IMG/VR virus record: IMGVR_UViG_3300031774_000005
Location: 1 to 64,000 of that record
Reading direction: 5' to 3' (one strand)
Source of the DNA: a virus
DNA: 64,000 nt
A model generated the notes under the pieces. That model did no database searches. It saw nothing but the letters and a program-made list of their open reading frames with translations, and was not told where the DNA came from. Below, one piece after another: positions 244 through 18,975 of this stretch. The position numbers and the translations under genes are program-made. Position 1 is the stretch's first letter. Each line of letters starts with the position of its first letter.

Positions 244-507
244 ATGTCAAGTTGGGAGGATTTTTTGAAAGCCCGTTATTATGACGGTGCTATGCAAACT
301 AATCCCGAATTGATAGCACAACAATTACGACAAGATTTTAGCAAAGCCCCTTCATTACACAAGGCACTTAGTAATTTTATTCCCATATTAGAAGAGTATG
401 CTCTTAAAGATAAAGCAAGAGCAAGCCAATATAGGCAAATTGCTGATAATCTAAGGAAGGTGGCTTCCGATATTAAACAAATGATAACCGAATATGAGAG
501 GTCTTGA
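244..507 (+). CDS. Small accessory protein with N-terminal WEDFLK-A tag
   Basis: MSSWEDFLKA; overlaps the next gene. Confidence 0.7.
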   Translation: MSSWEDFLKARYYDGAMQTNPELIAQQLRQDFSKAPSLHKALSNFIPILEEYALKDKARASQYRQIADNLRKVASDIKQMITEYERS

Positions 508-1876
508 TTTGTTTAAAGAAATGTCTAAAGAAGAACTCCAACAACTATGGAGCGAGACAATGGGAGATAAACCATTTCCTATGAACAGGTCGGAAAACTC
601 CCCTTTGGATTCTTTTTATCCGATTGATAATTTTATAGTTTTTATGAAAGAAGGCAAACCTATTTCCGGACTTGGTTATTCTACAAGAGATGGGTTTAGT
701 CTTAGGGGCGGAGCATTTACTATTCCCGAAGAAAGAAATTCGGGGGTTTATAAAAAAGTAGCAAGTGAAGCAGATAGAATAATCCCTACTCCTTCTATTG
801 CAGGTTTTTCTTCATCTAATATTGATTCGGAAGAATGGAATGAAAAGGCAAAAGGTAGGGGTTGGATGATTAAACCCACTGATGAAGAGTTAGGAGAGTA
901 TGCAGATAATCCAACAATTAAAGCATTCAAAGATTATTATGATAATCACCCAAAGGGGGCATCTTGGGGAGTCAAAGGATTATCTTTGAAAAAGTGGTTT
1001 AGTATTCTTAAGTCATATAGAATGGAAATGGGTTCAGCAGGGTTTAATGTTCTCGATGCTTCGGGTAAAGTTTTGAATTACAAAGGACTTAGCCGTTCAC
1101 AAGCAAAGACTTTTATTACAGAATTACAAGAAGGAAAAGATGTAAGCAGGTTCACTACAAAACCTCGTAAATCTATTAGGGGCAATTGGTTTAATCAATT
1201 GAAAAAAATTGACCCTAATAGTGGTGGTTATGTGAAGTTGCCAATGAGCGATATTGACGAACAACAGGTAGAAACTCCTTTTATGATTAACATAGTTGAT
1301 GGTGTTGCTATTCTTTTTAATGCTCATTATCATTATAGATATTCTCAAAGAAGAAATACCGGACTAACTATTATGGATAATACAATAGCAAGAAAATTTA
1401 TTGCTCTTGAGCCTGTTTTAGAAGGTTGGAGTTATATTGATGATGATTCTAAAAACCATTCTCATGTTATGTTTGATAGATTGAATAGCCCAACTGATGT
1501 TATTAAAAGAACTAATCCTAAAAAAACTATTGGCGACATAAGAAATCCCGAAACGGGAGAACCAATTACCGAAGCAGTTGTGTTTCATCATATTAATGAC
1601 GGCCATGATTCACCGGATAAAGAAAAGAAAAGAGATATATTTTATTTTAAGAATGAAGGTATTAAACCAAATCATAAGCAAAAGTTGGGTGTGTCTCAAA
1701 AGAAAAGAACAGATAAAGATAAGCCGAAAGAATTAGTTGTTAATCCTCGACAACCCAAAGAAGAAAAACCGAAAGAAGAAAAACCAAAGAAAGAATTAAC
1801 AGGAAAGCCACCCGAACAAAAACTTCCGCCTCCCCCTAAAAAGAAAAGAAGGCCAAATAGACAAAGAAGGTGGTAA
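494..1876 (+). CDS. Multidomain accessory protein: GNAT-like N-terminal domain, two internal WFxxLK motifs, K/P/R-rich tail
   Basis: GGAFTIPEERNSGVY resembles GNAT motif A; WFSILK at 995-1012 and WFNQLK at 1187-1204; PKEEK repeats. Confidence 0.6.
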   Translation: MRGLDLFKEMSKEELQQLWSETMGDKPFPMNRSENSPLDSFYPIDNFIVFMKEGKPISGLGYSTRDGFSLRGGAFTIPEERNSGVYKKVASEADRIIPTPSIAGFSSSNIDSEEWNEKAKGRGWMIKPTDEELGEYADNPTIKAFKDYYDNHPKGASWGVKGLSLKKWFSILKSYRMEMGSAGFNVLDASGKVLNYKGLSRSQAKTFITELQEGKDVSRFTTKPRKSIRGNWFNQLKKIDPNSGGYVKLPMSDIDEQQVETPFMINIVDGVAILFNAHYHYRYSQRRNTGLTIMDNTIARKFIALEPVLEGWSYIDDDSKNHSHVMFDRLNSPTDVIKRTNPKKTIGDIRNPETGEPITEAVVFHHINDGHDSPDKEKKRDIFYFKNEGIKPNHKQKLGVSQKKRTDKDKPKELVVNPRQPKEEKPKEEKPKKELTGKPPEQKLPPPPKKKRRPNRQRRW

Positions 1877-1878
1877 TT

Positions 1879-3312
1879 ATGGAAGAATTAGAAGCATTTA
1901 ATTTTGAACATGAAATGGATATGAAATTATCCAAAAACTCTTTTCCTTATTTTTTTCAAAATGTATTAGGTTTTGATTTTCCTCCATACATACAAGAATG
2001 GCATGAATTAATGAACTCTACTCAAAGAACTGTAATTATTTGTTCAAGAGACCACGGAAAATCTGTTTTTATGCATAGTTGGGTTGTTTGGAAATTAATC
2101 TTTGAAAAGCCACCATATCAAATGCTTTATATTTCTTCTAACCAAAAGCAGACTTTAGTTCACATGAGAGACATTGATAAGATGTTCACTCATCCTATGC
2201 TTAAAAAGTATAAACCCGCAAGAGGTTGGGCTATTGGTAATATTACTTTAACTAACGGTAATCAAATCTTAGAGCGTTCCGTTGGTTCACAGATTAGAGG
2301 ACTTCACCCTCAAGAGATTATTATTGACGACCCTTTGAAAGAGTTTAGTATGACAGGTATTCAAAAAGTCACAGATTGGTTTTATGGTGACATGATACCA
2401 ACACTTCACCACACCGCTTCTCTAAGAGTTATTGGAACTCCATTTAGTTATACAGATATATACCAACAGTTAGCAGAAAATCCTGCATATACTGTCAATA
2501 CTTATCCTTGTTTTAATGCGTTAAATGAACCCTTATGGCCGGAAAGATGGAACTATGATGCACTAATGGCTCGTAAAGCGGAAGTCGGTTCTTTGATGTT
2601 CACAAGAGAATATATGTGTGTTCCTATTTCAACGGGAACATCTTTGTTTAACCCCGAACATTTGGATAATGCCAAGAATAAAGACTTAATATTGAAGCCC
2701 TTAAAGAGAGAAGGCTACAAATACTTCGTCGGTGTAGACCCTGCTATTTCTACTGATGGAGATTACAATGTAATTACTGTAATAGAAATGGATGCAGAAG
2801 AAAATAAATCAATTATTTATATTGACCGAGCCAAGAATGTTCAATTTAGAGAAAACATACAGAAGGTCAAACTTATCGGTCAAATATTTAGACCCGAAGT
2901 TATTTTATTTGAAACAAACACATTCGCTAAGTCATTTACTCAAGAGTTGAGACAAGTGGCTGATTTAAATGTCCATGACTTTAATACAACAAGGAGAAAG
3001 AAGCAGGAGATTATTCTTAATCTACAAATGACTCTTGAAAATGGAAAACTAAATTTTCCTTATGGGAATGAAGAGAGCAGAAAAGTCTCTTCTATATTAA
3101 TTGAAGAACTGTCTATGTTTGCTATTACTGAAAGAGGCAAGTTTGAAGGAATAGGGGCGCACGACGATATGGTTATGAGTTTAGCATTAGCAAATGCCGC
3201 AACATACCAAGCCAACGATAACTTCATACTATTAGATGATTTAGGGCTATTTAATGAAACTCCTAATGATGGGAGAAAGCCTGTTAGAAATGCAATAGGA
3301 TTAAATTTTTGA
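1879..3312 (+). CDS. terL: Terminase large subunit
   Basis: SRDHGKS Walker A, IIIDD Walker B, GTP coupling motif, GVDPA and HDD nuclease motifs. Confidence 0.93.
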   Translation: MEELEAFNFEHEMDMKLSKNSFPYFFQNVLGFDFPPYIQEWHELMNSTQRTVIICSRDHGKSVFMHSWVVWKLIFEKPPYQMLYISSNQKQTLVHMRDIDKMFTHPMLKKYKPARGWAIGNITLTNGNQILERSVGSQIRGLHPQEIIIDDPLKEFSMTGIQKVTDWFYGDMIPTLHHTASLRVIGTPFSYTDIYQQLAENPAYTVNTYPCFNALNEPLWPERWNYDALMARKAEVGSLMFTREYMCVPISTGTSLFNPEHLDNAKNKDLILKPLKREGYKYFVGVDPAISTDGDYNVITVIEMDAEENKSIIYIDRAKNVQFRENIQKVKLIGQIFRPEVILFETNTFAKSFTQELRQVADLNVHDFNTTRRKKQEIILNLQMTLENGKLNFPYGNEESRKVSSILIEELSMFAITERGKFEGIGAHDDMVMSLALANAATYQANDNFILLDDLGLFNETPNDGRKPVRNAIGLNF

Positions 3313-3321
3313 GGTTTTATT

Positions 3322-3714
3322 ATGGGTTGGTTTAGTATTTTAAAAATAGGAAATACCTATCCTTCACCAAAATATACAACCTTTATGGTTCATGATAATG
3401 TTTGGAATAGTGCTAATATGATTAATAATGTTGGTGGTATTAGAGAATTAGAAATGTCTTTAGGTAGAGAATTAACCGAGAAAGATTTTACCGATGCTCC
3501 TGTTAATTGGTCTAATAAATATTGGAATGAATGGAGGGCAAAAAACGCTACTCCTGATGAAATAAATGCAGATAGTGATTCCATAAAAAGAAAAAAAGAA
3601 ATATTAGGCGAAGAAGGAAGAAAAAAATTAGCAAGAAGTTATTTGAATAACGATAGACCAAACAAATATCCGGATAGAATAAAAGAAGCAGAAAGAATAT
3701 TGGGGGTCGTGTGA
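3322..3714 (+). CDS. Accessory protein with WFSILK tag
   Basis: MGWFSILK; body MVHDNVW...LGRELTEKDFTDAPVN resembles a phage hypothetical family. Confidence 0.7.
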   Translation: MGWFSILKIGNTYPSPKYTTFMVHDNVWNSANMINNVGGIRELEMSLGRELTEKDFTDAPVNWSNKYWNEWRAKNATPDEINADSDSIKRKKEILGEEGRKKLARSYLNNDRPNKYPDRIKEAERILGVV

Positions 3715-3715
3715 A

Positions 3716-5092
3716 ATGTCGGAAGCAGGGGATAAAGTTAGAGAAACAATGAGGCAGATGGGAGAGTTAGCCAACATTGAAGATAAAAAAGCAAAGACAC
3801 AAGAAGAAATAAAAAGACTTAGTGCAGAAAAAAATGAAGAAGTGCAAGCAAGTCTCTTTACAAATACTCATGTTCTATCCGAGCATGAGGAAATAACAAA
3901 ACTTGCAGACCATCTTAACATAAATGCAACAGAAGCAAGAAAACAATTAGATAATTTTCCTAATGAATATTTAGTCCAAGAACATACTATTCCCGATGTA
4001 GTAAGAAAAATGAGAAAGGCTCGCAGGGCTTTGAAAGGTGAACAAAGAATCAAAATGTCAAAGGCGATTGATACAATGATTGATGCTTATGCCGACCATT
4101 TACAAAAGTGCATTGGGTCAATAACATGGTTAAACGATTATACAATTCCTTTATCTAAAATGAGATACAATGAAAAAGATTTAGTTAAACTAAATAAAAT
4201 GAAAAGTAGTGAATTAAGAAGAGAAACAATTGATGCTCTTTGTAAATATTGGGAAGCAGAATTAGAACAAAAAGATATGGCTTATGGTAAAGAATATAGC
4301 GATTTATTTAAGACAATGAAAACTGCAAAGAAACAATTTAGAAATACAATAAATAAAATAACTAATCAATCTATTTCTAAAAGTAAAAAACAAAGACAAG
4401 AAGATTTTATTTTAAAAACTGTATGCGAAAATCCGGGTATTTCTGCTAAAGGAATACATGAAAGAATGCCGTCTCAACTGTTTAAAATATCAAGTCCTAA
4501 TAATATATCTAAAGTAATTAAAAAATTAGATATTGCTTCAAATGAGGGTTCTTATTATAAGATGCCATCTATGATTAAAAAGAATATTTGGGCTTATACT
4601 GCGGCTTTCATTGACTCCGATGGATATATTACATTAGACCGTAATATGAATCCAAGAGTGGGTTTAGTTGCCACAGGTGAAAGAGGCAAGGTGTTTATGA
4701 AAGAAATGCACAAATCATTAGGATTTGGCCGTATGCACTTAGACCAAAAATCCCCACAACAAACCCGCTTAATTAACAGACTTAATTTTTATTCTCAAGC
4801 AGATGTTAGCCAACTATTAACTAAGTGCCTACCACATTTTAGATTAAAGAAAGGTAATGCTAAATTATTATTAGAATTAATTCGTATGAAAAAAGCACAC
4901 AAGAAGGCCGATTGGTATAAAGGAAGATGTGATGAGATATTTAAGTTAATGAAATGGGAAAACCATAAAGACCATGTGGGTTTCGATTGGTTGAAAGAGG
5001 GAATTTATCTTGACAATATACAGAAATACAAAGACAACTGCAAAATGTCAGTCATGGATAGTTTAGAAACAGTAGGCGGTATTCTTGTTTAG
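3716..5092 (+). CDS. Helical/wHTH protein with C-terminal LAGLIDADG domain
   Basis: YTAAFIDSDGYI LAGLIDADG helix followed by typical beta strands and LPHFRLKK; N-terminal ~290 aa helical, including a wHTH-like segment. Confidence 0.75.
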   Translation: MSEAGDKVRETMRQMGELANIEDKKAKTQEEIKRLSAEKNEEVQASLFTNTHVLSEHEEITKLADHLNINATEARKQLDNFPNEYLVQEHTIPDVVRKMRKARRALKGEQRIKMSKAIDTMIDAYADHLQKCIGSITWLNDYTIPLSKMRYNEKDLVKLNKMKSSELRRETIDALCKYWEAELEQKDMAYGKEYSDLFKTMKTAKKQFRNTINKITNQSISKSKKQRQEDFILKTVCENPGISAKGIHERMPSQLFKISSPNNISKVIKKLDIASNEGSYYKMPSMIKKNIWAYTAAFIDSDGYITLDRNMNPRVGLVATGERGKVFMKEMHKSLGFGRMHLDQKSPQQTRLINRLNFYSQADVSQLLTKCLPHFRLKKGNAKLLLELIRMKKAHKKADWYKGRCDEIFKLMKWENHKDHVGFDWLKEGIYLDNIQKYKDNCKMSVMDSLETVGGILV

Positions 5093-5201: not shown

Positions 5202-5203
5202 TT

Positions 5204-5452
5204 ATGATTATGAAAAGCATGTCTTGGCAAGAATTAAAAACAGGAATACTCAATGATGAGTTGCCTAAAGATAGAAGCAAATATGTTAGGTATAGCAATC
5301 TTGCTTCTATTAATAAAAAAATGGTTGTCTATTATCTACGCTCCGGTTTTAAGAAGCCCGAAAATAGAAGTAAATTCCTGCGTGGTATTTTAGATGAAAT
5401 GCTCCGTTCAAGTAATGAAAGGTATGACATTGAAGATGCTTCTAAACGGTGA
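5204..5452 (+). CDS. Hypothetical protein
   Basis: 82-aa ORF with GAGG RBS; N-terminus IMKSMSWQELK. Confidence 0.65.
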   Translation: MIMKSMSWQELKTGILNDELPKDRSKYVRYSNLASINKKMVVYYLRSGFKKPENRSKFLRGILDEMLRSSNERYDIEDASKR

Positions 5453-5506
5453 TAGCGAAGGCTTGATAACTGATAGGAGTCCTGCAATAATTCAAGGGGT
5501 ATAATT

Positions 5507-7147
5507 ATGGTTGAGCAAAAAAGAAGATTTAGCCTAACCAACCTGTTTAGGCGTTCTACTCCTAAACCTGCGGATAGAACCGTATTTAATATGGGAATCC
5601 AAGAAAGGGAAACACATCACATGATGAATGGCCCGATTATTTACAATATTGTTAATCAATCAGTTATTGCGAGAACCTGTATTACTCAATTGAAACAAGA
5701 AGTTTTTCGTAGAGGCTACATTTGGGAAAAAGCATTTGAAGCCCGATGTGAGGATTGTAAAAAGGAACATACAAGACCTGTTCAAGAATGCTCAAGATGC
5801 AAAAGCACAAACTTAACACTTCCTAATATAGAACAATTAGAGTATGCTGAAAAATTCTTAGAAGGATATGTCAATAAATCGGAACAACTTTTTATTGATG
5901 TATTGCAGGAATTAGAAGATGATTTGAATATTATGGATGATGCCTATATTGTTTTGGTAAAAGAATACTTTTTAGATGGTAATGGTAAAATTAGAATGCA
6001 CCGTATTAAAGAATTATATCGTGGCGACCCTGTGACTATGTTTATTTATTCCGATGAGTTAGGACAAAGGGGAACAAAAGGATTTACTTGCGTTAATCAT
6101 AGGCAGATGATTTACAAAGACCCACATGAACCTTGCGAGCATTGTGGAGCAAATACTTTTCCTGTGCATTATGTAAATAGAGTCAATGGAGAAGACCAAC
6201 ATTTCCTAAAAGGAGAAGTTTTGCATTTTAGTAAATACAGTCCATCAAGACTTTATGGTATGTCTCCTGTAATTACTTTATTTAATAATATTATGACTCT
6301 TATTGCTATGGAAAATTATGTCAATTCTTCATATACCAAGAGCAGAATGCCAAAAGGAATACTTGCAGTTCAAACAAGAAATATGGATTCAATGAAATCT
6401 TTTTGGAGAGCAGTAAAAGAAAAAATGGAAGCCGACCCACATTTTATTCCTGTTATGGGTATTGAAGCCGAGAATGGTAAAGGTGCGGTTGAGTGGGTTA
6501 AGTTTATGGATAGTCTAAAAGAAATGGATTATGTTTCTGTTAAAGATGATTTAAGAGATAGAATATCAGCCTTTTATGGAGTAAGTAAAGTTTTCATGGC
6601 TGATAATACTACAAGCGGTGGATTAAACAATGAAGGTATGCAAATACTTGTCACTAATAGAGCAGTTCAAAAAGCACAAACTGTCTATAATAATTATGTA
6701 TTCCCATTCCTCATAAAACAATTTGGAATTACTGATTGGAATTTAAAACTTCCACCAAGCGAAGAAGAAGATGAAATAGCAGTATTAAGGAAGAGAGAGT
6801 TAGAAGTAAATATTGCGGCCTCTACTAAAAATTTAGGATTTGAAGTTGATATGGATGAAGATGGAAACTTTACCTTTACTAAACCTGAACCGGAAGAATC
6901 AAAAGAAGGTGAAGGTGGAGAAGAACAAGTTGAAACAGACCCTTATGCCGGAACTAATATAGATGCCTCCCAATTAGGACAAATGCAGGAGCAAGCATTA
7001 CAGGGCGGAAGTAAGCCACAAGCAAATCCAGCAACAACAAGAAATAAACCATCTATGAATCAAGGGCCGGATAAAAGAATGTCAGGATTACCATTAGAAG
7101 CAGGAAACCAAAACAACGATAAAAGAACTGAAAGGAGGGTTAATTAA
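5507..7147 (+). CDS. Portal protein with two Zn-ribbon insertions
   Basis: Position after terL; HFSKYSPSRLYGMSPV, MPKG and RISAFYGV portal-like motifs; CEDC/CSRC and CVNH/CEHC. Confidence 0.85.
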   Translation: MVEQKRRFSLTNLFRRSTPKPADRTVFNMGIQERETHHMMNGPIIYNIVNQSVIARTCITQLKQEVFRRGYIWEKAFEARCEDCKKEHTRPVQECSRCKSTNLTLPNIEQLEYAEKFLEGYVNKSEQLFIDVLQELEDDLNIMDDAYIVLVKEYFLDGNGKIRMHRIKELYRGDPVTMFIYSDELGQRGTKGFTCVNHRQMIYKDPHEPCEHCGANTFPVHYVNRVNGEDQHFLKGEVLHFSKYSPSRLYGMSPVITLFNNIMTLIAMENYVNSSYTKSRMPKGILAVQTRNMDSMKSFWRAVKEKMEADPHFIPVMGIEAENGKGAVEWVKFMDSLKEMDYVSVKDDLRDRISAFYGVSKVFMADNTTSGGLNNEGMQILVTNRAVQKAQTVYNNYVFPFLIKQFGITDWNLKLPPSEEEDEIAVLRKRELEVNIAASTKNLGFEVDMDEDGNFTFTKPEPEESKEGEGGEEQVETDPYAGTNIDASQLGQMQEQALQGGSKPQANPATTRNKPSMNQGPDKRMSGLPLEAGNQNNDKRTERRVN

Positions 7148-7539
7148 TGAATTGGCTAAGTATTTTAAAGAATAAAAGAAGTTTCAAGGATTTGAGACAA
7201 TTAAGAGAAGAAGGCGTTAGAGAAGGAAAACAAAGAAGAAAGTCTCCAACTCCTATGTCGGGTGGCGACCCCCAACCAAATAAAAGGAGACATACTCAAG
7301 CAATAGCGGGAGGAACAGAAGGTGGATTTTATGGTGATGAAAAAGAACCGTTTGATGAAACCGAAGAAGATAGATACACAAGACAATCTTTAGCAAATTC
7401 AACTCTTTTTGACCTAAAAGATAAGGTTAGAAGTATGTTAGATAATTTAACGCAAGATGAACTGATTGATATTTTAATTGCTTCTCAAGGAGAAGTAGGA
7501 ATTTTGGGAATTAAACTCGCAAACAGGAGAGGAAAGTAA
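7147..7539 (+). CDS. Accessory protein with WLSILK tag
   Basis: MNWLSILK; TAATG overlap with portal. Confidence 0.7.
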   Translation: MNWLSILKNKRSFKDLRQLREEGVREGKQRRKSPTPMSGGDPQPNKRRHTQAIAGGTEGGFYGDEKEPFDETEEDRYTRQSLANSTLFDLKDKVRSMLDNLTQDELIDILIASQGEVGILGIKLANRRGK

Positions 7540-7772: not shown

Positions 7773-9401
7773 ATGATATTTGAATTATCTAAAGATAAGT
7801 CCTTGCTTCATGTATTAAGTAAGGTAGAGTTAGATGAAGACACTAAGGCTTTAGTGAAAGCAAAAGCGAGTCCTTCGGAAATAAAAAAATCTTTAGTTAA
7901 TAATCTTAATCCCTCTAATATGATTTCATATAGAAAATATATTAAAAAGGCAGAAGAAGAAGAGAAAGAAGACGACGACGAAACATACGGGTTCGCTGAT
8001 GATGAATCAGGAGAAGAAGAATCATTAGGAACTTCAAGTGAAGATTATCTAAGTAGTGAAGAAAGAGAGTCACGCTTAGAATCAGCAGAAATTGAATCCG
8101 ATATTCAATTGATGGAAGATGAAAAAGCCGCCTATAAATATTTAATTGAACTATCATCTAAACTTAAACCTCTTCAAGAAATAATGCAAAATGCAAGAGT
8201 TGAAGAACAAACTTTCAAGACGAGAAAGGCAGAAAAAAAGAAAGATGTCGTTGTTGGGGGAATGAAAAATTTCCTTAAAGTAAGTGGTAGCCAAGATAAC
8301 TCCATCAAAACACTACAAGATTTGAGAAGTATTAAAGCAGATAAAAATTATTTATTTACAGAATATGGTCGTTTATTGATTGAAGGTGTTCTAAAAGGAA
8401 AGGATTTCAAAAGAGACAAGGAAACTCGACAATTTGAAATTAAGTTAAATGAAAAGAAAAACATTGATGTAAAGCAATTACAAGATGATTTTGTTGCGCT
8501 ATTGTCTCAAGATATTGAAGGTAAAGATATTCTTGATATTATGAAAATGTTGCATCAACAACAATACGGTAGAACGCCAAAAACAATGCAGAATAGAGGC
8601 CAAAGAGCAAGAGAATTACGAGGCATGATGATGTTTGCTCAAGGAAAAAGCCAAAAAGTTCAAAGAGAATATAAGGCAATCAAAGATGATATAAAGGAAC
8701 TTAGAGACGAGGCAACTAAAATAAGAAATAAAAAAGAGTTTGTTGAAGAAACAATTCAAAAAATAGAAGAAATAATGCAAGACCCTGAAAAAATAGTTCT
8801 TGAGAAAATTAAAAGATTAAGACGGGGAATTATGACATTAATTAATTCCGCAGGAACAAAGCCTGAAGAAGTTAAAAAATTAATGGATAGAATTAAAGAA
8901 ATGGATAACAATAAAGAAAAATATATCAAAGAAGCCACAAGAGAAATCCAAGAAGATTTAGAGACTGAACAGGCTAAACTACAACACTACATGATTACTT
9001 TAAATGTGGCTGATAGACTCAAAGACCCTCTTAGTGGCTTTATAAGAATAGTTAATATGTTCCAAGAAAACGACCCAATAGACGCTCTTAAAAGAAAAAT
9101 AACAAGAGCCGGAAATATTGTTGTTAAATTATTTAACCAAGCAAAGGGGATAGAAATATTTGCTTCTCGTAAAGAAGATGGGATTGAGGGAGGCATAAGT
9201 GCCTATTTAACAGATAACCCCAAAGTCAAACTAACTCTTGATGCAGAAGGATTAGAGTTTGATGGCCTTCCAACAATTGATGCAGAAGCAGTTAGAAGAA
9301 TGGGAGAATTTGAAGATAAATTTAATGTTAAAGTTGATGAATTACAAGAGATTGTAAATCAACTAAATCACATGATAGACGGAAAGGGTGAAGAAGAATG
9401 A
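7773..9401 (+). CDS. Coiled-coil head-module protein (possible internal/core protein)
   Basis: 542 aa, K/E-rich helical with an acidic tract; AGGTGA RBS; LVKA, IKKS, IKKA motifs near N-terminus. Confidence 0.65.
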   Translation: MIFELSKDKSLLHVLSKVELDEDTKALVKAKASPSEIKKSLVNNLNPSNMISYRKYIKKAEEEEKEDDDETYGFADDESGEEESLGTSSEDYLSSEERESRLESAEIESDIQLMEDEKAAYKYLIELSSKLKPLQEIMQNARVEEQTFKTRKAEKKKDVVVGGMKNFLKVSGSQDNSIKTLQDLRSIKADKNYLFTEYGRLLIEGVLKGKDFKRDKETRQFEIKLNEKKNIDVKQLQDDFVALLSQDIEGKDILDIMKMLHQQQYGRTPKTMQNRGQRARELRGMMMFAQGKSQKVQREYKAIKDDIKELRDEATKIRNKKEFVEETIQKIEEIMQDPEKIVLEKIKRLRRGIMTLINSAGTKPEEVKKLMDRIKEMDNNKEKYIKEATREIQEDLETEQAKLQHYMITLNVADRLKDPLSGFIRIVNMFQENDPIDALKRKITRAGNIVVKLFNQAKGIEIFASRKEDGIEGGISAYLTDNPKVKLTLDAEGLEFDGLPTIDAEAVRRMGEFEDKFNVKVDELQEIVNQLNHMIDGKGEEE

Positions 9402-9766
9402 CATGGGATTTTTACGGTGAAGGAGAAGATTTTATCCTAAAGGCTGAAAAGCAAGAGCCAAAAGAAGTTCTTGATTCATTAGATTCTAAAGGCAGAAAGA
9501 AACTCAAAAAGACACTACAAGCGGCTGAACCAACAGAATTTTTTGGACAGGACTTTACTAAGTTAGGAGAATTAATTTCAACTCTTAGAGAATTAGATTT
9601 AACTAAGTCCGATAAAGTCTTAAACAAGAAAATGAAATCAATGGATGAGCGCAACATTGATATTGTGGCTACCGCTACCAAACTTCGTAAAGAGTATGAA
9701 CTTCTATATAGACAATTAAGAGACATTGTTTATCCAACAGGAGGAAAGAAGAATGACAAAAAATAA
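9398..9766 (+). CDS. Hypothetical head-module protein
   Basis: MTWDFYGEGEDFILKA; ATGA overlap. Confidence 0.7.
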   Translation: MTWDFYGEGEDFILKAEKQEPKEVLDSLDSKGRKKLKKTLQAAEPTEFFGQDFTKLGELISTLRELDLTKSDKVLNKKMKSMDERNIDIVATATKLRKEYELLYRQLRDIVYPTGGKKNDKK

Positions 9767-10007
9767 AACAATAAATGAAGAACTGCTAACAATAATTAAG
9801 GCTTTAACAAATAAAGTTGAAGAATTAGAAAGAACCGTATATTCAAAGGATAGTATTTTAAGAAAGGCCGGATTCGTTGTATCTAATAGCCCGACACCTG
9901 CTATTGATAATTCAATAGGTGGAGTTGGTGCATTACCAACAACAGATATTAGCAGCATGGATTGGTCGGAAATACACAAAATGGTAGAACAAGTGGAGGG
10001 AAACTAA
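9753..10007 (+). CDS. Mini-scaffold-like protein sharing the protease/scaffold C-terminal motif
   Basis: GGAGG RBS; N-terminal coiled coil; ends MDWSEIHKMV, compare MDWSDIHKMV of the protease. Confidence 0.7.
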   Translation: MTKNKTINEELLTIIKALTNKVEELERTVYSKDSILRKAGFVVSNSPTPAIDNSIGGVGALPTTDISSMDWSEIHKMVEQVEGN

Positions 10008-10584: not shown

Positions 10585-13509
10585 ATGAAACTCGGCTCTA
10601 TTGAGAAGGATAAACAACCTTCTCAAGAAATATTAAGACTCTTTGAAAAAACAAGAGTTGCTTATTTATCAGCAGTTCACGACCCCGATGAATACGGAGG
10701 CCGTTGGAGAAAAGCGGTTGATTTAATCATAGAATCATATGAAGAATTAGATGCCGCAGGTAAAGAGTTAAGGAATTTTATTGATGAAGATGAAATAGAA
10801 GATAAAGAAGTTAAAAACCCAATATCAAGAGAAGCGAAAGACTTGTTTGAGAAAATAAAACTCATTAGATACTCTTCTAAAATAGTTGCTGACCCTTTTG
10901 CTGAAATGTTCAAAGGTAGTGTCCTTGAAGAATTGTTAGATAATCCCGAAACTATGGTGAAATTCATTCATTATGCACTAAGAGACGACAATAAAGCACT
11001 ATCTCCGGACATTTTAGCCATTAAAGGTATGCAACCCGACACAATAACGGAGGGTCTTGTTGGACTTGACCTTGAATCGGATGATATTGCCCTCTATATT
11101 ATAGAGCATTACGGTGATGGAAAAGACTCAAAGAAGGTTGAATCGAAAGTAAAGGCAGGAATGGAACTATTAGAACTTATTTTCTTTTCTCAACATGAAG
11201 AGAAAGAATGGACAGACTTAAAAGAAATAGAAGGATTAGAGAAATCACAAAAAGAATTAACAGAAAAGTCCATTTCTCAATTTATTGTTCCTAATAAACC
11301 AATGTATAGGATATTTGGGATAGACGACATTAATGAATTAAAAGGCTTTAGTGGTAATTGGTATGTCCAAGAGAAATATGACGGTATGAGAATACAGTTG
11401 CATAAAATAGATGGCTCGGTTAAAATTTATTCTTACAATGAAAAAGACATTACTGCTAAGTGCAAAGAACAGGTTGAAGAACTTAAGAAAAAAGAATACG
11501 GAGATTGTATTTTAGATGGAGAGTTAATTCTTTTTGATGGTGATGATGCACTACATAGAGCAGATACTATTGCTCATGTTTTCAAAGGCAAATACAAAGA
11601 CGCTAAATTAAAGTGTCATGTGTTTGATATTATTCGACATGAATCCCAAACATTAACAGATGAAGATTTAGAAGATAGAATGACTATTTTATTCAATAAT
11701 TATTCAGCAAAGTCTAATCAAGCAATTGCTTATCCTTCTAAAAAAGATACAAGACAGGCTGATAGTCTAAAAGATGTTGAAAAGTATGCGAAAGAAATGA
11801 TGGATATTCCCACTTCCGAAGGAGTTGTTATTAAAGATGCAACTTCAACATATTATATTGGAACTAAAAAGAACCCTAAATGGATTAAATGGAAGAAGTT
11901 TGTTGATTTAGATGTAATTGTTTTAGATAAGAAAAAGACGAAAAGCAATCTTTATTCATATACTGTGGGCGTTGGGCCAATTCCGGAAGATATGGAAGGA
12001 CAAGAAATTGATGGTAAAAAGTATCTTAGTGTTGGTAAAGCATTGAATACTAAAGTAGCCGTTAATGTTGGAGATATTGTTAGAGTCAAAGTTGATGAAG
12101 TTAAGAAAAAAGGAGATGGGTTTAGTTTATTTTCAGCAAAGGTAATTGAAATACCGGAAGTCGAACACCCCGATAAATTAGTCACTCTTGAACTTCTATC
12201 ACAAGATACCAAAAAATCACTTAACTATAATGTAGAAGCATTAACAAAGGGAATCAAAATAACTGATTATATACATGGTGAAACAAATGTAATCATGAAA
12301 TCGGATATGAATGGCTTTGTAATCTATGGTTTTGAAGAAGATAATCTAATGTCTAAGAATGCTTTGGCAGATTTGGATATGTGGAAAGCCCAAGCAGAAG
12401 AAATAATGAAAACTAAAGCAAGTCAATTAACGGTTGCTATTTTTCAGTATCTAAAAACAATGGGAGACAAGACAGTAAATGATGTTCATGACTTTTTGAA
12501 GGACAAACACAAAGATATTTATGAAGATGTATTAGAATCTAAAAAGACTAAATTGAAAGATTGGTCGGATAATAGAGACGGTATTTCATTCAAAGATAAG
12601 AAACTTCATGCTGATGATGATAAAATTATGCAAGAAGAAGAAATTATGAAATCACTTTTAATTAAAAATCAAAGACAAGAATTAATCCAAAGAATAAAAC
12701 AGGAACAGGAACAGGAACAAGGACAAGGACAAATCGCTATTGAAGCAGATATGTCGGGTGATTGTTGCACTCAATTAAAACATAAAATTATTGAAAATAG
12801 AAAACGCCAACTTGAATATTTAATGGGAAATAAATCTTGGGAAGAACTGAAAAATAACCCCCAATACAATTTATCATCTTTTGATAATTATAATTCTTTA
12901 GAAGAAACGATGGATTGGTATTCTAATTTTATAATGAATCGGGATTGTGAATGGTTAGCGACGGAATTTATTAGTGAAAAGAATAAAGAAGAGTGGAAGA
13001 GTGTAGAAGAATATAATGAATGTTTATATGGTGAAGGATTTTCCGATAAATACGCTATGTTAAAAGAATACAAAACCCCAAAAGAAAATAGAAAGGGTTT
13101 GTTTAAAATATATTCAAGAGAAGATGATAATATAACATTAGGTATTAAACTTGAAGATGAAAGTTTATTTTGGACTATTGACTTAGATAACCAAGAAGAA
13201 ATGTTTGATTTGTTTGGTGCGGCAGGAAAATATCCGGCAGAAGTGGCTAAAAATGTCGAAAGAGGAAAGGTAGTTGATGCAGGAGATATTGAGTTAGGTG
13301 TCCAAAAAGAAGGTTATCATGAATACTTCTTGAAAGGTAATAAATTTGAAACTAAGATGCATTTTAGAGTAATCAAGGTTGAAGGAAAAGAAATGTGGCT
13401 TGCATGGACAGGATATAAACAAGAACCTGCTGATACAGAAGGCGATAAAGGTTTATGGAATATATATGAAGATAAATACAGTAAATTGTCAATTCCGGCT
13501 AAAAATTAG
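10585..13509 (+). CDS. Multidomain ATP-dependent DNA ligase-like protein in the head module
   Basis: EKYDG, ILDGE, VFDII, EGVVIK, WIKWK motifs plus OB domain; long N- and C-terminal extensions. Confidence 0.85.
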   Translation: MKLGSIEKDKQPSQEILRLFEKTRVAYLSAVHDPDEYGGRWRKAVDLIIESYEELDAAGKELRNFIDEDEIEDKEVKNPISREAKDLFEKIKLIRYSSKIVADPFAEMFKGSVLEELLDNPETMVKFIHYALRDDNKALSPDILAIKGMQPDTITEGLVGLDLESDDIALYIIEHYGDGKDSKKVESKVKAGMELLELIFFSQHEEKEWTDLKEIEGLEKSQKELTEKSISQFIVPNKPMYRIFGIDDINELKGFSGNWYVQEKYDGMRIQLHKIDGSVKIYSYNEKDITAKCKEQVEELKKKEYGDCILDGELILFDGDDALHRADTIAHVFKGKYKDAKLKCHVFDIIRHESQTLTDEDLEDRMTILFNNYSAKSNQAIAYPSKKDTRQADSLKDVEKYAKEMMDIPTSEGVVIKDATSTYYIGTKKNPKWIKWKKFVDLDVIVLDKKKTKSNLYSYTVGVGPIPEDMEGQEIDGKKYLSVGKALNTKVAVNVGDIVRVKVDEVKKKGDGFSLFSAKVIEIPEVEHPDKLVTLELLSQDTKKSLNYNVEALTKGIKITDYIHGETNVIMKSDMNGFVIYGFEEDNLMSKNALADLDMWKAQAEEIMKTKASQLTVAIFQYLKTMGDKTVNDVHDFLKDKHKDIYEDVLESKKTKLKDWSDNRDGISFKDKKLHADDDKIMQEEEIMKSLLIKNQRQELIQRIKQEQEQEQGQGQIAIEADMSGDCCTQLKHKIIENRKRQLEYLMGNKSWEELKNNPQYNLSSFDNYNSLEETMDWYSNFIMNRDCEWLATEFISEKNKEEWKSVEEYNECLYGEGFSDKYAMLKEYKTPKENRKGLFKIYSREDDNITLGIKLEDESLFWTIDLDNQEEMFDLFGAAGKYPAEVAKNVERGKVVDAGDIELGVQKEGYHEYFLKGNKFETKMHFRVIKVEGKEMWLAWTGYKQEPADTEGDKGLWNIYEDKYSKLSIPAKN

Positions 13510-13515
13510 TTGTTC

Positions 13516-13523: not shown

Positions 13524-13552
13524 GTGGATAGTATAAGAAAGGGTTGAGAGGA

Positions 13553-14737
13553 ATGGTATCATCTGTAATGAATAGAAGCAGACACGATTTCAGGATTCTT
13601 AAAGCACAAGACGATTTAATGATTGGAGGATATGCAAGCATCGAAATCGTTGATAAACAAAATGACTTAATCACACTCAAAGCACTTAACGAAGCAGTTA
13701 AAAAATATATGGAGAACCCAAAGTTTAGAAATGTAATGACAAATCATTCTAATGTTCAAGTTGGAGAAGTAGTAAAATCATATAGAGACAAAGCAGGGAA
13801 GTTATGGAAAACCGAAGTTGATGATGTAGGATTCTTTGTAGTAATTAAGTTAAGAGACGATATAGAAAAAGCCAAAGAAATTAATAGAGGCATAAGAAAA
13901 GGTTCATTGAGGTCATTTAGTATTGGAGGACAGGCTTTAGAAAAAGTAAAGAAAAACCACCAAGAATTAGGAGATTACAATGAAATTAGCAAACTTGAAT
14001 TACATGAAGTAACAATATGTGAAAAAGGAATTAACCCCGAAGCAAGATTTGATATTTTAAAGCAAGAAAAAAACACAAAAAAGGAAGTGAAAAATATGAG
14101 CAAAATAGAAAAAGCACTTGAAGAGTTAGATGCGCTAATGGCAGAAGTCAATACTCTACGCAAGGAAGAAGAAGAAGAAAAAACAGAACCTTTGACCGAA
14201 GAAATGGATAAAGGCGAATACATGGACACCACAGAAGAGGAAGATTTAGACACCGAAGCAAAAGCGGTTCTAAATACTCTTGATGCTGGCGGAATAGAAA
14301 TAGGCGAACCTGCTGATAGAGTTGTTATTAGCGGTGGAAAGCCTAAAGCATCTGATTTGCCCGTTGTTAAAGCATTTGACAACAGCGAATTAGAAACTCT
14401 TGATTTGTCCGTTGGAAACATTGAGAAGGCTTACGAGGCTTTCCGTCAAGAACAACTTGAAAAGTTGGCTTACGATAACCTCCAAAAGTCATTTGAAACA
14501 AGATTTAACCACGAAGTTTCTGCAAAAGAATCTATTTTGGCAAAATCTCAATATGATGCGGCAAGTGAAATTGCATCTCTAAAGGATGAATTTACCGCAT
14601 TAAGAAAGTCTCTAACTGCTGAAAAGGAAACAATCCTAAAAGCACAAGAAGAGGCAACCGTTGAACTCCCATCTATGGATGAATTGGCCGAAATGGATTG
14701 GTCGGATATTCATAAAATGGTCGGAGGACTTAATTGA
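13553..14737 (+). CDS. Prohead protease fused to scaffold
   Basis: IGGYAS..VDKQND, NHS (His), SFSIGG (Ser), EVTIC..GINPEA; acidic coiled-coil C-terminus; directly upstream of MCP. Confidence 0.88.
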   Translation: MVSSVMNRSRHDFRILKAQDDLMIGGYASIEIVDKQNDLITLKALNEAVKKYMENPKFRNVMTNHSNVQVGEVVKSYRDKAGKLWKTEVDDVGFFVVIKLRDDIEKAKEINRGIRKGSLRSFSIGGQALEKVKKNHQELGDYNEISKLELHEVTICEKGINPEARFDILKQEKNTKKEVKNMSKIEKALEELDALMAEVNTLRKEEEEEKTEPLTEEMDKGEYMDTTEEEDLDTEAKAVLNTLDAGGIEIGEPADRVVISGGKPKASDLPVVKAFDNSELETLDLSVGNIEKAYEAFRQEQLEKLAYDNLQKSFETRFNHEVSAKESILAKSQYDAASEIASLKDEFTALRKSLTAEKETILKAQEEATVELPSMDELAEMDWSDIHKMVGGLN

Positions 14738-14749
14738 AGGTGATTTATT

Positions 14750-16102
14750 ATGACAGGATATATTAATACAATAGCAGACTTAGAAGCACAAACCTATGGA
14801 ACAGGCGCAACAGGCCATATTAGCAATCAATTGCTTAAGGCCGCAGGAACAGTAGCAGGTATTCATACTGCACACGATGGCTCGTTAAGCGCACCATCGG
14901 GCATTAACGCAAATCTTTACAACAAGATTTACGGCCAAAAAGTATGGTCTATGCTAAACCGAGAATGTAATGCACTATCGGTTATTTCAAAAAGACCTTA
15001 TTCATCAAGTGGTTGGAGAATTTTAAAGAAAAGACCTGCCGGTGGAGCAGGAAACCAATTAGATGTTTCTGCCGCTTCAAATACCGCATTAAGTGATGGA
15101 TTATATGGTGCTGATGCACTTAGAGCAGACCGTCTTGGTGGTGTTCCGGAAAATGCAAGTCTTGATTCAAATACAGATGGTTTGATTTCAATTGCACCGG
15201 AATATGATACACTATTTACAAGCCCTAAGATTATTGCACATCAATTCTCTTTCAGTGAATTGGCTATGGAAATGGCTTCTATTGATGATGGAATTGGCGA
15301 TATTAGAGCGCAACTAAGAGAAGATATGGGCAAGCATCACGCAGAAGTCCAAAACCAAATGCTTGTTATGCCTTTGGAAAACTATTCTCCAACAACTGCT
15401 TATGCTACCGCAAATGCCATTGATAGAGGATATACTTCTCTATTGAAGATTGTTTCTAACTCGGCTGAAATTACCGAATTAGCGGATAACTCCGGTGGAA
15501 ACCTTGTAGATGGTGCAACAGACCAAGCAATTGATACACTTTATGGAAAACTACGAAGTGCAGCAGGAAATGAATATCTTGATTCCGAAGTTTCTTTCGG
15601 TGATGGCTACCTTTCAGCAGAAGCACGACAATTAACTCTAACTGTTCTAAACGATATGATTAGAAGACTAAGAGTTGCCGGTGGTTCTCCAAAGGTTATT
15701 CTAACAGGATATGATACTCTACAAACTATCTCGGACTTGCTACAAGCCCAAGAAAGATTCATGGATAGAAAGGAAATTGTTCCAACTGTTAATGGAGTAA
15801 GAGGCGTAAAGGGTCAAGAAGTCGGATTTAGAGTTTCAACTTACTACGACATACCAATGATTCCGGTTGCTGCTATGACTTCAACAGGAACAAACTCTTC
15901 TTTGATTAGTGATATGCTTTTCCTTGATACAGACCATTTGTGGCTATCTGTTATGAAACCAACTCAATACTTTGAAGATGGTATTTCAAACGGAAACCCA
16001 TTCGGTGTCGGTTCTCTTGGAAACAAGGCTCTTTACCGAACAATGGGAGAAATGGGCTGTTCATACTTTAAGGGTCAAGGCAAAATTACAAACCTTCTGT
16101 GA
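14750..16102 (+). CDS. Major capsid protein (HK97 fold expected)
   Basis: 450 aa after the protease; AGGTGA RBS; YYDIPMIP and LFLDTD-type C-terminal motifs. Confidence 0.85.
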   Translation: MTGYINTIADLEAQTYGTGATGHISNQLLKAAGTVAGIHTAHDGSLSAPSGINANLYNKIYGQKVWSMLNRECNALSVISKRPYSSSGWRILKKRPAGGAGNQLDVSAASNTALSDGLYGADALRADRLGGVPENASLDSNTDGLISIAPEYDTLFTSPKIIAHQFSFSELAMEMASIDDGIGDIRAQLREDMGKHHAEVQNQMLVMPLENYSPTTAYATANAIDRGYTSLLKIVSNSAEITELADNSGGNLVDGATDQAIDTLYGKLRSAAGNEYLDSEVSFGDGYLSAEARQLTLTVLNDMIRRLRVAGGSPKVILTGYDTLQTISDLLQAQERFMDRKEIVPTVNGVRGVKGQEVGFRVSTYYDIPMIPVAAMTSTGTNSSLISDMLFLDTDHLWLSVMKPTQYFEDGISNGNPFGVGSLGNKALYRTMGEMGCSYFKGQGKITNLL

Positions 16103-16112
16103 GGCGATTTAA

Positions 16113-16448: not shown

Positions 16449-16459
16449 GGGTGATTTAG

Positions 16460-16780
16460 TTGGCAACAATTAAATTAGCCAAAGGAGCAAGGTCTAAGAC
16501 TTTGTTGATGTTTGGTGAAATACTAAATAGAGACGCTACCGTTGAAGTAGAGGCTATTGATGCTCTTAGAGTATATGGTGATTCTAACTTAGATATTTCT
16601 TTTACTGAAAGCGATAGGAAAGATTTGAAACAAATTGACCCTAAAATGCTTACAAGGCTAACTAAGGCTTTTGGTAAAGAAATAACTACGCACGATGAGA
16701 TGTGTAAGGAATTATTACCTGCTAAAACAAGAGCAAAGAAAGCCCCTGCTAAACCTAAAAAGGCTTCTTTAGAAGAATAA
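16460..16780 (+). CDS. Hypothetical protein with basic C-terminal tail
   Basis: GGGTGA RBS, TTG start. Confidence 0.65.
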   Translation: MATIKLAKGARSKTLLMFGEILNRDATVEVEAIDALRVYGDSNLDISFTESDRKDLKQIDPKMLTRLTKAFGKEITTHDEMCKELLPAKTRAKKAPAKPKKASLEE

Positions 16781-16837
16781 TAGACCCATAGCATTAATAG
16801 GGAAAGCCCCTGTTCATGGTTTGAAGGAGATAGAGAT

Positions 16838-17116
16838 ATGGCAAGTTGCAGAAGTAGCGGAGTATTGACCGGAAGCGCAGTAGTTTATTCCGGAAAGTGT
16901 AAATTGATTTCTATTCATGCTTGTGAGGTTGCAGGTTCAGCCGCAACTGTAAAAGTGTGGGATAATGCAAGTGCAGCAAGCGGTAAAGAATTAGCAAGGA
17001 TTGTTTTATCCGCTAATCAAACAATTGAATTTGATATGCATGGAGTAATCTGTTCAAATGGATTATTCTTTGAAGAAGATGCAGGTTCAGTTGCAGTTTC
17101 TATTGAATTTGCTTGA
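16838..17116 (+). CDS. Small beta-rich virion-type protein
   Basis: 92 aa, A/S/G/V rich; GGAG RBS. Confidence 0.6.
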   Translation: MASCRSSGVLTGSAVVYSGKCKLISIHACEVAGSAATVKVWDNASAASGKELARIVLSANQTIEFDMHGVICSNGLFFEEDAGSVAVSIEFA

Positions 17117-17125
17117 GGTTTTATT

Positions 17126-17509
17126 ATGCCAGCGTTAAGCCAAGATACCCGTTTAGTTATGACTATACTTTTTGTTGGAGCATTAAGTGGAACAAATGTT
17201 TGGGCGTATGCTCAATTCGGAACAGGATTTCCTTATGGAGCATTAGCACATTCGGTTTTATTTGGATTAGGAACAATAGGTGCAATCATGGTTATGAAGG
17301 CCGTTTTTGATTTAGTCTTAAATGACAAGATAGAAATGTGGCTTCTTGATAGAAAGATAGCGGCCTTTTGGGAAAGAAAAGCAAGAGACGAGCAACAAAG
17401 AAACAAGATGCGTGAAAGCGCAAGACAATACAATACTAATCTTTATCAAGGTATTCAAGAAGAAGAAGAGAATACTGTTGGTAATGAGTTCTTAGCCGCA
17501 TTACAATAG
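17126..17509 (+). CDS. Membrane protein (two TM helices plus coiled-coil tail)
   Basis: LVMTILFVGALSG and ALAHSVLFGLGTIGAIMVM hydrophobic segments; charged helical C-terminus. Confidence 0.75.
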   Translation: MPALSQDTRLVMTILFVGALSGTNVWAYAQFGTGFPYGALAHSVLFGLGTIGAIMVMKAVFDLVLNDKIEMWLLDRKIAAFWERKARDEQQRNKMRESARQYNTNLYQGIQEEEENTVGNEFLAALQ

Positions 17510-17520
17510 GCGGTGAAAGA

Positions 17521-17739
17521 ATGGTCTTTGGAGATTTAATGGGGTTCTCGGACTCCGATTATGCTTATAATCAAACAAGAGCGCATTCTGCCGATATTTT
17601 CTTTTTGAAAATGAGAGCATGGTTTTGGGGTTCTTGTGTAGGGCTATCCGCTTTTCTAATTGGAAACATAATGGGCGTATTTGATATTAATGTAATGGGT
17701 TGGATTATAGAAAAAGTATCGGGTTTATGGGGTCATTGA
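17521..17739 (+). CDS. Small membrane protein
   Basis: AWFWGSCVGLSAFLIGNIMGVF TM segment; GCGGTGA RBS. Confidence 0.75.
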   Translation: MVFGDLMGFSDSDYAYNQTRAHSADIFFLKMRAWFWGSCVGLSAFLIGNIMGVFDINVMGWIIEKVSGLWGH

Positions 17740-17740
17740 T

Positions 17741-18409
17741 ATGTCATTAATGACAGGCTTTGCTATATTAGTTGGTGAAGCAGTTATTGGTTTTTGGAAG
17801 AAAGTCCACGCTATTAATTTTGGAGTGTATGGAGCAACAATGGTTGGTAAAACAACACTAAGTCACCAATTAAGAACAAGGGGAGAAGTTCCTCAAATTA
17901 ATGAAAGAACAGTAGGACTACATAGAGCATCGAGAAAAAATGTAAAAATTGATGGTGATTCACATACAATAAAAAGTGCTGACATAGGAGGGGAAGCGAT
18001 TTATTGGAAAGAATGGGTCAAAGATATGCAAAAGCGTAGAGTAAAATATATTATTTTTATGATAGACCATAGGCATTTAGATAATGAAGCAAATTTAGAC
18101 CATCAAGTAGCATGGAAGTTTTTAGTTGATACCATTGTGTCGGATTTATGGCCAACAAATAGGAAAAAAAGAGAATCGGATTATCCTATGGCTATCGGAA
18201 TATGGGCTAACAAATATGACATATGGGGAGAAAAATATCCATTAGAAGAAGGCCAAACCATAGACAAACATAAAATATTTGAACCTTTTAAGTATGGAAT
18301 GAGGCAGTTGAACGACAAGGGAATACCTTGTTTCAAATATATAGTATCGGCAAAATCAGACCCCGAAATGGTATATAGAGGCGTAATGACGATGATAAAG
18401 GATTATTGA
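17741..18409 (+). CDS. Arf/Ras-like small GTPase
   Basis: G1 GATMVGKT, G2 RTVG, G3 DIGG, G4 NKYD, G5 SAK; hydrophobic/amphipathic N-terminal helix. Confidence 0.9.
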   Translation: MSLMTGFAILVGEAVIGFWKKVHAINFGVYGATMVGKTTLSHQLRTRGEVPQINERTVGLHRASRKNVKIDGDSHTIKSADIGGEAIYWKEWVKDMQKRRVKYIIFMIDHRHLDNEANLDHQVAWKFLVDTIVSDLWPTNRKKRESDYPMAIGIWANKYDIWGEKYPLEEGQTIDKHKIFEPFKYGMRQLNDKGIPCFKYIVSAKSDPEMVYRGVMTMIKDY

Positions 18410-18414
18410 TTATT

Positions 18415-18975
18415 ATGTGGTTTAATATCTTAAAAAGACAAACTAAATTATACAATTATGACCCAGATTTTTTAAATCCTTATGGCGAAGTGTCTCACTT
18501 TCATGGAAGCAGGGCATCAAAAGAAAAATTATTAGAAGAAGGATTAAAACCTCAAGGAAAATATATTAGTCATCCTAAAGGATATACAAAAGAACATTAT
18601 AGAGATTTAGTTAAACCCGATAATAAAAATAAAAAATCATTGATATGGGCGGCAGGAAAAGAACAAGGACTTCCCTTAGAATACGGAGAATCTAAAGAAA
18701 ATGTCAAAGAAACAAAAGTTGATTATAATTCTTTATTTGATGAAAGGGGAATGCTATTACCAAATCCTAAAATTCTTGAATCTAACAAAACTATAAGGAC
18801 AGAAGGAAATATAGTAGGCATTAGAGGAAAGGATATTGATTGGAACAGAAGCGAGTCACCTATTTACAAAATAGGAACAAAATGGTATATCCATAATAAA
18901 CCAATTGACCCAGATAGATTAGTATTTCTAACAATAGAACAATGGAAAAAATATTTAAACAAGAAAGGCGATTAA
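18415..18975 (+). CDS. WFNILK-tagged ADP-ribosyltransferase-fold protein
   Basis: FHGS..LLEEGLKP, LIWAA, WYIHNKPIDPDRL resemble Tpt1/PARP-like ART motifs. Confidence 0.55.
   Translation: MWFNILKRQTKLYNYDPDFLNPYGEVSHFHGSRASKEKLLEEGLKPQGKYISHPKGYTKEHYRDLVKPDNKNKKSLIWAAGKEQGLPLEYGESKENVKETKVDYNSLFDERGMLLPNPKILESNKTIRTEGNIVGIRGKDIDWNRSESPIYKIGTKWYIHNKPIDPDRLVFLTIEQWKKYLNKKGD

Follow-up and report, generated by a model that had tools for sequence, protein, structure and literature searches.

The question raised by this locus is why otherwise unrelated proteins of one virus begin with the same short peptide. The stretch analyzed (hereafter, the window) comprises positions 1 to 64,000 of the IMG/VR record IMGVR_UViG_3300031774_000005, i.e., the first 64 kb of a 75.5-kb record judged to be 80% complete, and it belongs to an uncultured archaeal virus of the ocean, a magrovirus. 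The strict form of the peptide (hereafter, the tag), M-x(0-2)-W-x-x-[IF]-L-K, opened four open reading frames (ORFs) of the window, beginning at positions 244, 3322, 7147 and 18415, as had been stated in the original prediction; for the 79 ORFs of the window and its own amino acid composition, approximately 0.034 such N-terminal matches were expected. The variants predicted in two further ORFs, at 5204 and 9398, and the two copies predicted within a larger protein, 494..1876, were likewise found. Selection acts on the tag as a peptide; the tag is restricted to the head strand, is modular, is joined to bodies that are swapped, and resembles the C-terminal tail of the protease/scaffold protein. 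On balance, it is probably a capsid-loading label that works like the capsid targeting sequence (CTS) of T4 and is clipped after its lysine. The ORFs concerned were as follows (aa, amino acids):

244..507, + strand: 87-aa tagged ORF, tag MSSWEDFLK at 244–270
494..1876, + strand: 460-aa multi-module protein, internal tags WFSILK at 995–1012 and WFNQLK at 1187–1204
3322..3714, + strand: 130-aa tagged ORF, tag MGWFSILK at 3322–3345
5204..5452, + strand: 82-aa ORF just 5' of the portal gene, variant tag MSWQELK, one residue shorter, at 5219–5239
7147..7539, + strand: 130-aa basic tagged ORF directly 3' of the portal gene, tag MNWLSILK at 7147–7170
9398..9766, + strand: 122-aa core head-module ORF, split variant with MTWD at 9398–9409 and FILK-A at 9431–9442
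18415..18975, + strand: 186-aa tagged ORF, tag MWFNILK at 18415–18435

Selection on the tag peptide

The distribution of the tag was assessed in a sample of 161 related IMG/VR loci, in which the motif W-x-x-[ILFQMV]-L-K was sought within eight residues of the first ATG. It was found near the start of 417 head-strand ORFs and of none on the opposite strand, while the control motifs gave 0–8 matches (reversed, 1; tyrosine for tryptophan, 0; phenylalanine for tryptophan, 8), which bears out the enrichment that the original prediction had proposed to look for. In four genomes annotated with a simple gene caller, the tag was carried by 47 of the 251 head-strand ORFs, whereas it was found in none of the 247 replication-strand ORFs (Fisher p = 1.4e-15). 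A DNA-pattern scan of five complete relatives of 94–97 kb gave 11–17 matches on the head strand, 0–3 on the other strand and 0–2 for a control pattern, with the matches concentrated in approximately 25 kb. Neither the window nor its 75-kb record contained a − strand ORF initiated by the tag, in agreement with its predicted absence from the − strand arm; the sole − strand match was internal, in 64289–65431. When IMG/VR was scanned for the tag in a single strict codon version, at least 120 stretches were detected, and among those listed there were 270 tags in 80 loci, most of which resembled the magrovirus set.

Complete relatives contained 12–17 tagged genes each, and most of these were located in a block just 5' of the terminase gene, tightly packed with untagged large proteins and a GNAT protein. 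Most of this block is absent from the window record, and only four strict tags were found in the window because this incomplete record misses the region upstream of the terminase. In the same block of the relatives, proteins of 741–766 aa opened with the variant tag M-N-W-F-x-V-V-K (L093:1995-4220, corresponding to G004 19291-21516, and G003 46843-49143), and further variants ended in I-V-[KR], E-I-K, I-L-H-K or I-L-Q-K. Since such variants occur, the strict pattern undercounts the tags.

The shared sequence could in principle be a signal in the nucleic acid itself, one that enhances translation starts or links gene cassettes in recombination, for example, with the peptide as its by-product. 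A GGNGA ribosome-binding site precedes most tags, so that conservation also extends upstream, and the bodies are exchanged exactly at the tag, both of which would suit such a signal. However, the synonymous positions were free. In 414 distinct tag contexts, the leucine codons were TTA (126), CTT (82), CTA (81), TTG (68), CTC (44) and CTG (13), those for lysine were AAA (283) and AAG (131), and three codons were used at the isoleucine position. All six leucine codons, drawn from two codon families, are therefore in use, which shows that selection acts on the peptide and not on a nucleic-acid signal; the synonymous variation noted among the copies in the window thus recurred throughout the set. 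The motif also occurs internally and, in the form of the tail considered below, at C-termini. The nucleic-acid explanation is largely refuted by the codons and is barely credible. It should be noted that the start methionine lay two residues ahead of the tryptophan in 308 of the 414 contexts, and that the fixed positions of the tag were more conserved than the body in 10 of 11 families.

The protease/scaffold tail and candidate cleavage sites

Three further head proteins are relevant to the tag:

9753..10007, + strand: 84-aa mini-protein, C-terminal tail MDWSEIHKMV at 9957–9986, matching the protease/scaffold tail
13553..14737, + strand: prohead protease (Peptidase_S78, Pfam PF04586) fused to a scaffold-like C-terminal domain
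14750..16102, + strand: major capsid protein (Pfam SU10_MCP), candidate maturation site NQLLK-A at 14825–14839 (K30)

The protease/scaffold protein ends with the tail MDWSDIHKMV (14693–14722). When the 23,059 eight-residue segments of the genome were scored with a matrix derived from 129 tag clusters, this tail ranked third and that of the mini-protein fifth; the two internal tags of 494–1876 stood above them, and one other segment lay between the two tails. According to a comparison with 1.8 billion representative proteins, the tail core M-[SD]-W-x-[DE]-[IVL]-H is preserved in protease/scaffold fusions down to approximately 35–40% identity. In two lineages (representatives P0138 and P0214) tryptophan is replaced by tyrosine; neither was found in IMG/VR, where the alignment-based scan gave only lineages with a tryptophan tail. 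The pairing of tails was also observed in distant untagged lineages, for example, L225, L208 and L193, which encode a protein of 112–118 aa ending in ...[DE]IH[DE][LM]A....

In related tailed-virus systems, such tails anchor internal proteins to the inner capsid shell while the capsid assembles. The tag would accordingly form a short amphipathic helix imitating the tail M-[SD]-W-x-[DE]-[IV]-H of the protease/scaffold and mini-scaffold proteins, and a soluble protein of any kind bearing M-x-W-x-x-[IV]-[LI]-K would co-assemble into the procapsid. The tag might instead dock to another hub, for example, the GroEL-type chaperonin encoded at 61524–63101, a host factor, or a putative ubiquitin-like (Ubl) conjugation system with the lysine as acceptor. 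As a short amphipathic helix whose W, I and L share one face, the tag would be typical of linear binding motifs, and the chaperonin is indeed encoded in the genome; moreover, the lysine is invariant in the tags but not in the tails of other lineages, so it should have a role beyond tail mimicry. Against this, the only carriers of the motif besides the tagged proteins are two head-assembly proteins, the tagged genes are all on the head strand while those for the chaperonin and the putative Ubl proteins are on the replication strand, and nothing ties the tag to chaperonin or Ubl systems. Docking to such a hub is therefore considered unlikely.

With respect to cleavage, the loading reading supposes that the Peptidase_S78 protease would cut after the lysine of the tag and free the cargo within the head. 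This step is proposed because the tag shares its hydrophobic-hydrophobic-Lys ending with conserved sites in the protease/scaffold and capsid proteins. The protease/scaffold contains three candidate sites, namely, FRILK (13589–13603) before the catalytic domain, FDILK (14048–14062) at the exact protease/scaffold junction, and TILK (14630–14641) just before the tail, approximately 35 residues from the C-terminus of the scaffold. These sites and the tail are preserved in relatives, with FRILK and FDILK extending to distant representatives. The protease does contain ILK-A and the capsid protein LLK-A, the sequences to which the endings of the tags had originally been compared, and 27 capsid proteins (69–96% identity) show no variation at L28, L29 or K30. 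A search of PDB sequences with the capsid protein profile gave no match. An in-frame extension 'MNWLKWIG...' 5' of some capsid genes was judged to be a start-calling artefact.

The Pfam match of the protease to PF04586 (E 6e-10) covered residues 23–180 and profile positions 12–164 of 165, and the Pfam scan yielded only Peptidase_S78 and S78_2, with no gp21-type match. HK97 gp4 matched PF04586 as well (E 4.9e-30). In solved structures of the mature HK97 capsid, the first residue of the chains is 104, and the precursor has lysine at position 103; thus, given the shared family and the HK97 cut after Lys103, lysine at P1 fits the magrovirus protease family. It was also observed that HK97 gp4 has I-K approximately ten residues ahead of its GYAS motif, in parallel with the magrovirus F-R-I-L-K, and that its A-A-M-K-S parallels F-D-I-L-K; these domain-edge motifs could reflect a common logic of self-cleavage or else belong to the structure of the fold.

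The same data might be explained if the tag were only a cleavage site for the prohead protease or another Lys-specific protease, timing the late activation or inactivation of accessory proteins without any packaging. The I/L-L-K ending of the tag is the same as that of the conserved protease and capsid protein sites, the type enzyme of the S78 family cleaves after lysine, and the internal copies separate modules, all of which this explanation would accommodate. However, it leaves unexplained the invariant tryptophan and the likeness to the tail W-S-D-I-H-K, which is not a cleavage site. In the characterised systems of HK97 and T4, prohead proteases work inside the procapsid, and since they act there, the substrate would have to be inside the procapsid anyway. 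A role as a cleavage site and nothing else is accordingly rated as improbable.

Tagged bodies and their exchange

Apart from the tag, the proteins have little in common. In the lineage sample, the tagged bodies formed approximately 164 unrelated BLAST clusters, a diversity of the kind that the original prediction had anticipated. Only 3 of 150 body representatives had a Pfam match, namely, a PAP2-type phosphatase, a pentapeptide-repeat protein and a helix-turn-helix protein. The first of these (L093:7896-8471, relative G004; PF01569, E 1e-11) is a tagged, soluble protein of 191 aa in which the KxxxxxxRP, PSGH and SRxxxxxHxxxD motifs are intact and a hydrophobic segment is absent. A transmembrane segment was predicted in 0.6% of tagged versus 7.6–11% of untagged head-strand proteins.

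The exchange of bodies was most evident in a slot between the gene 17741–18409, whose product is weakly GTPase-like (MMR_HSR1, E 0.0024), and the gene 18977–19639. This slot is occupied by 18415–18975 in the window; in relatives, it is empty in one case and otherwise holds one of five unrelated bodies, each of them tagged. Such replacement of unrelated bodies at fixed genomic positions corresponds to the 'plug and play' arrangement that had been postulated. The occupant in the window had only two homologues among 5.8 billion proteins, matched no Pfam or PHROG family, and gave a poor AlphaFold 2 (AF2) model (predicted local distance difference test, pLDDT, 41.5). It had been described as resembling an ADP-ribosyltransferase (ART), which was not confirmed: the sole ART lead was one Atlas cluster with PARP in 16% of its members, and a profile search of PDB sequences gave chance-level matches only, with no ART among them.

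The other cargo type named in the original prediction, a GNAT-like protein, was upheld as to its fold but not as to an N-terminal tag, since 494–1876 has its own N-terminus without the tag and contains internal copies only. In this protein, the order is a GNAT-fold module (approximately aa 1–160), WFSILK, a small module, WFNQLK, a His-rich module and a basic tail. No Pfam family was detected at E <= 0.1, there was no sequence-level match to a GNAT family, and the Atlas gave only weak leads (0.82–0.85). In the AF2 model (pLDDT mostly 63–86 per 10-residue block over aa 1–220, with one block at 51), both internal tags form short helices separating the modules, and the top Foldseek PDB matches of the first module were all GNAT acetyltransferases (E ~2e-4, target TM-score (template modelling) ~0.5), which supports a GNAT fold for the modelled N-terminal module. 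Among 11 homologues with 21–64% identity, the internal tags were the best-conserved columns, and W168, F169 and K173 were invariant or nearly so. The protein is therefore regarded as a candidate polyprotein, in which one address would carry several modules that are subsequently cut apart.

The remaining families differ in their distribution. ORF 244–507 had eight distinct relatives, some of them truly tagless and starting at or near the lysine; that of L101, for example, begins MKKARYYD. Among true tagless orthologues, six of eight begin no more than six residues from the lysine. Residues 20–66 of ORF 3322–3714 match phrog_6053, and this small domain was also found within a larger, untagged Rhizobium phage protein. 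In ORF 5204–5452, the W-x-x-L-K variant is preserved in 48 homologues (32 distinct), and the start is ambiguous, the ribosome-binding site pointing to 5204 and the tag register to 5219. ORF 7147–7539 has a syntenic tagged gene in related genomes (22 homologues, 15 distinct, with identity down to 26%), and the N-terminus of ORF 9398–9766 is preserved in 108 homologues. The families of 5204, 7147 and 9398 are core head-module genes and not variable accessories.

That three tagged families belong to the conserved core of the head module, and that the tag copies the scaffold tail, would also fit proteins that are present in the procapsid only transiently, as fillers, assembly helpers or outer decoration, and are lost or degraded at maturation like the scaffold. 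The other bodies, however, are highly diverse (the numerous clusters, the swap slots and the 98% without a Pfam match) and in this resemble arms-race genes, so a transient role seems rather improbable for the tagged set. If, instead, the tag loads cargo, the proteins would bind the capsid shell, be cleaved, be retained in the virion and be delivered to the next host. It may tentatively be suggested that the cargo consists of anti-defence effectors that enter the host by injection. More specifically, magrovirus heads could possibly be protein-delivery vehicles, in which a tag copied from the scaffold tail would load more than 150 exchanged soluble families, a Lys-specific S78 enzyme would release them, and their injection would disarm the Poseidoniales hosts, although this is held with reserve. 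With the same reserve, the soluble PAP2-type phosphatase, the pentapeptide-repeat protein and the GNAT modules might belong to such an arsenal, and the pentapeptide-repeat cargo may mimic DNA.

Several observations weigh against the interpretation of the tag as a capsid-loading label. For magroviruses, the binding, cleavage and packaging are all steps that we infer. In many IMG/VR lineages, the protease/scaffold and the mini-protein both bear the tail, yet there are no N-terminal tags within 10 kb; since the tail is kept in these untagged lineages, it is older, with the tags as a later expansion copying it, and the tail alone does not therefore imply a cargo system. HK97 gp4 (L379, 3348-4025) also ends its S78 domain with a hydrophobic-hydrophobic-Lys motif (A-A-M-K-S), and FRILK and FDILK, instead of being cut, may form strands of the fold. 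The residue after the lysine of the tag is variable (K 26%, A 15%, then E, R and N), while at the core sites it is A, S or Q. In complete genomes, most tagged genes lie upstream of the terminase. Finally, 13–17 cargo species per genome, some of more than 650 aa, would have to fit into one head.

Known systems and genome context

The original prediction drew a parallel with T4, and this parallel stands with regard to functional resemblance and fails with regard to the protease family, which is Peptidase_S78 and not of the gp21 type. The T4 CTS is an N-terminal peptide of 10–19 residues, of which residues 4 and 7 serve for targeting and residues 8 and 10 for processing (PMC9026906). It is common to diverse internal proteins, including IPI–III and Alt, from which it is removed by the prohead protease gp21, and it can load foreign proteins (PMC9026906, PMC3012670, PMC7411985). 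Both systems place a short N-terminal peptide on otherwise unrelated, fast-evolving proteins, with a cargo set that varies among related viruses, and in both the end of the peptide coincides with the site motif of the head protease, the targeting and processing determinants lying within approximately 10 residues (as proposed for the magroviruses). The differences are that the magrovirus host is archaeal and that its protease is of the HK97 type with a presumed lysine at P1, whereas gp21 has glutamate at P1; furthermore, the magrovirus tag mimics the C-terminal tail of the scaffold itself, also occurs internally between modules, and is found in 12–17 genes per genome on approximately 164 body families. 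Because the protease family differs, the magrovirus system is an analogue of the T4 system and not a member or homologue of it.

The layout of the magrovirus protease/scaffold has other counterparts. In herpesviruses, pUL26 is a protease/scaffold with release and maturation sites and a C-terminal capsid-binding tail. HK97 gp4 is also said to have a C-terminal capsid-binding tail, reportedly described by Duda, Oh and Hendrix in 2013 (J Mol Biol 425:2765; title cited in PMC12749128). SPN3US gp245 has a C-terminal propeptide (PMC7411985). As in these proteins, the protease is followed by a scaffold-like region with a short conserved tail, and the candidate sites FDILK and TILK lie at the junction and before the tail, respectively. 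The magrovirus differs in that the tail motif is copied to the N-termini of many non-structural proteins, and binding of the tail to the capsid is assumed. In SPN3US and other phiKZ-like giant phages, ejection proteins have N-terminal propeptides with a proposed role in prohead targeting (PMC7411985, PMC10052503). The likeness here consists of multiple head-internal proteins sharing one prohead protease motif; however, the propeptides of the giant phages are 111–130 residues long and share no octapeptide, and both the protease family and the site motif differ.

The N-terminal motif is not mentioned in the published magrovirus descriptions examined (including PMC5434244), and a text search revealed no capsid targeting signal described for any archaeal virus. 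If the loading reading is correct, archaeal viruses would gain their first example of an addressing system for capsid cargo, and the T4-style loading of interchangeable proteins would have evolved independently in such a virus with an HK97-type protease. Few archaeal viruses in the surface ocean are as abundant as magroviruses, and for the majority of magrovirus genes no function is known. A common role as capsid cargo would be assigned to 12–17 genes per complete genome (four in the incomplete window record), which would be the likely set of the virus–host arms race, and an eight-residue tag could be used to load proteins into HK97-fold shells.

The window is divided into a + arm (1–41.3 kb), with the genes for the terminase, portal, prohead protease/scaffold and major capsid protein, and a − arm with replication genes, encoding a PD-(D/E)XK nuclease, a family B DNA polymerase, a clamp loader, a ligase and the GroEL-type chaperonin. 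The landmarks referred to above were as follows:

1870-3312, + strand: terminase
5507-7147, + strand: portal
61524-63101, − strand: GroEL-type chaperonin (Cpn60_TCP1, E 2.9e-42; GDGTTT and EEGIV.GGG motifs)

The relatives of this virus are marine contigs of 90–97 kb. Among cultured viruses, it is closest to HVTV-1 and HCTV-1, two haloarchaeal siphoviruses with 31% identity in the protease, which have neither the tryptophan tag nor a comparable tail, and cultured relatives therefore provide no experimental anchor. The gene content and layout of the window agree with the published description of magroviruses, in which a GroEL-type chaperonin indicates group B, B1 or C and not group A (PMC5434244).

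Three further features were observed. Between the terminase and the portal, a 458-aa ORF (3716–5092) resembled by eye a LAGLIDADG homing endonuclease (one ...IDSDGY... motif) and matched no Pfam family at E <= 0.01. A second ATP-dependent DNA ligase (10585–13509; PF01068, E 3.8e-30) is encoded in the head module directly 5' of the protease; it has 820–998 aa in relatives, the difference in size being due to a variable insertion near residues 730–775, and a SWEELK sequence within it was rejected as a tag, being a non-conserved part of a variable insertion. On the − strand, the family B DNA polymerase is seemingly split into the ORFs 47458–48348 and 49608–51263, which span positions 36–193 and 222–347 of the Pfam profile, respectively, with small ORFs in between; this could represent a split gene, an intein or a mobile insertion.

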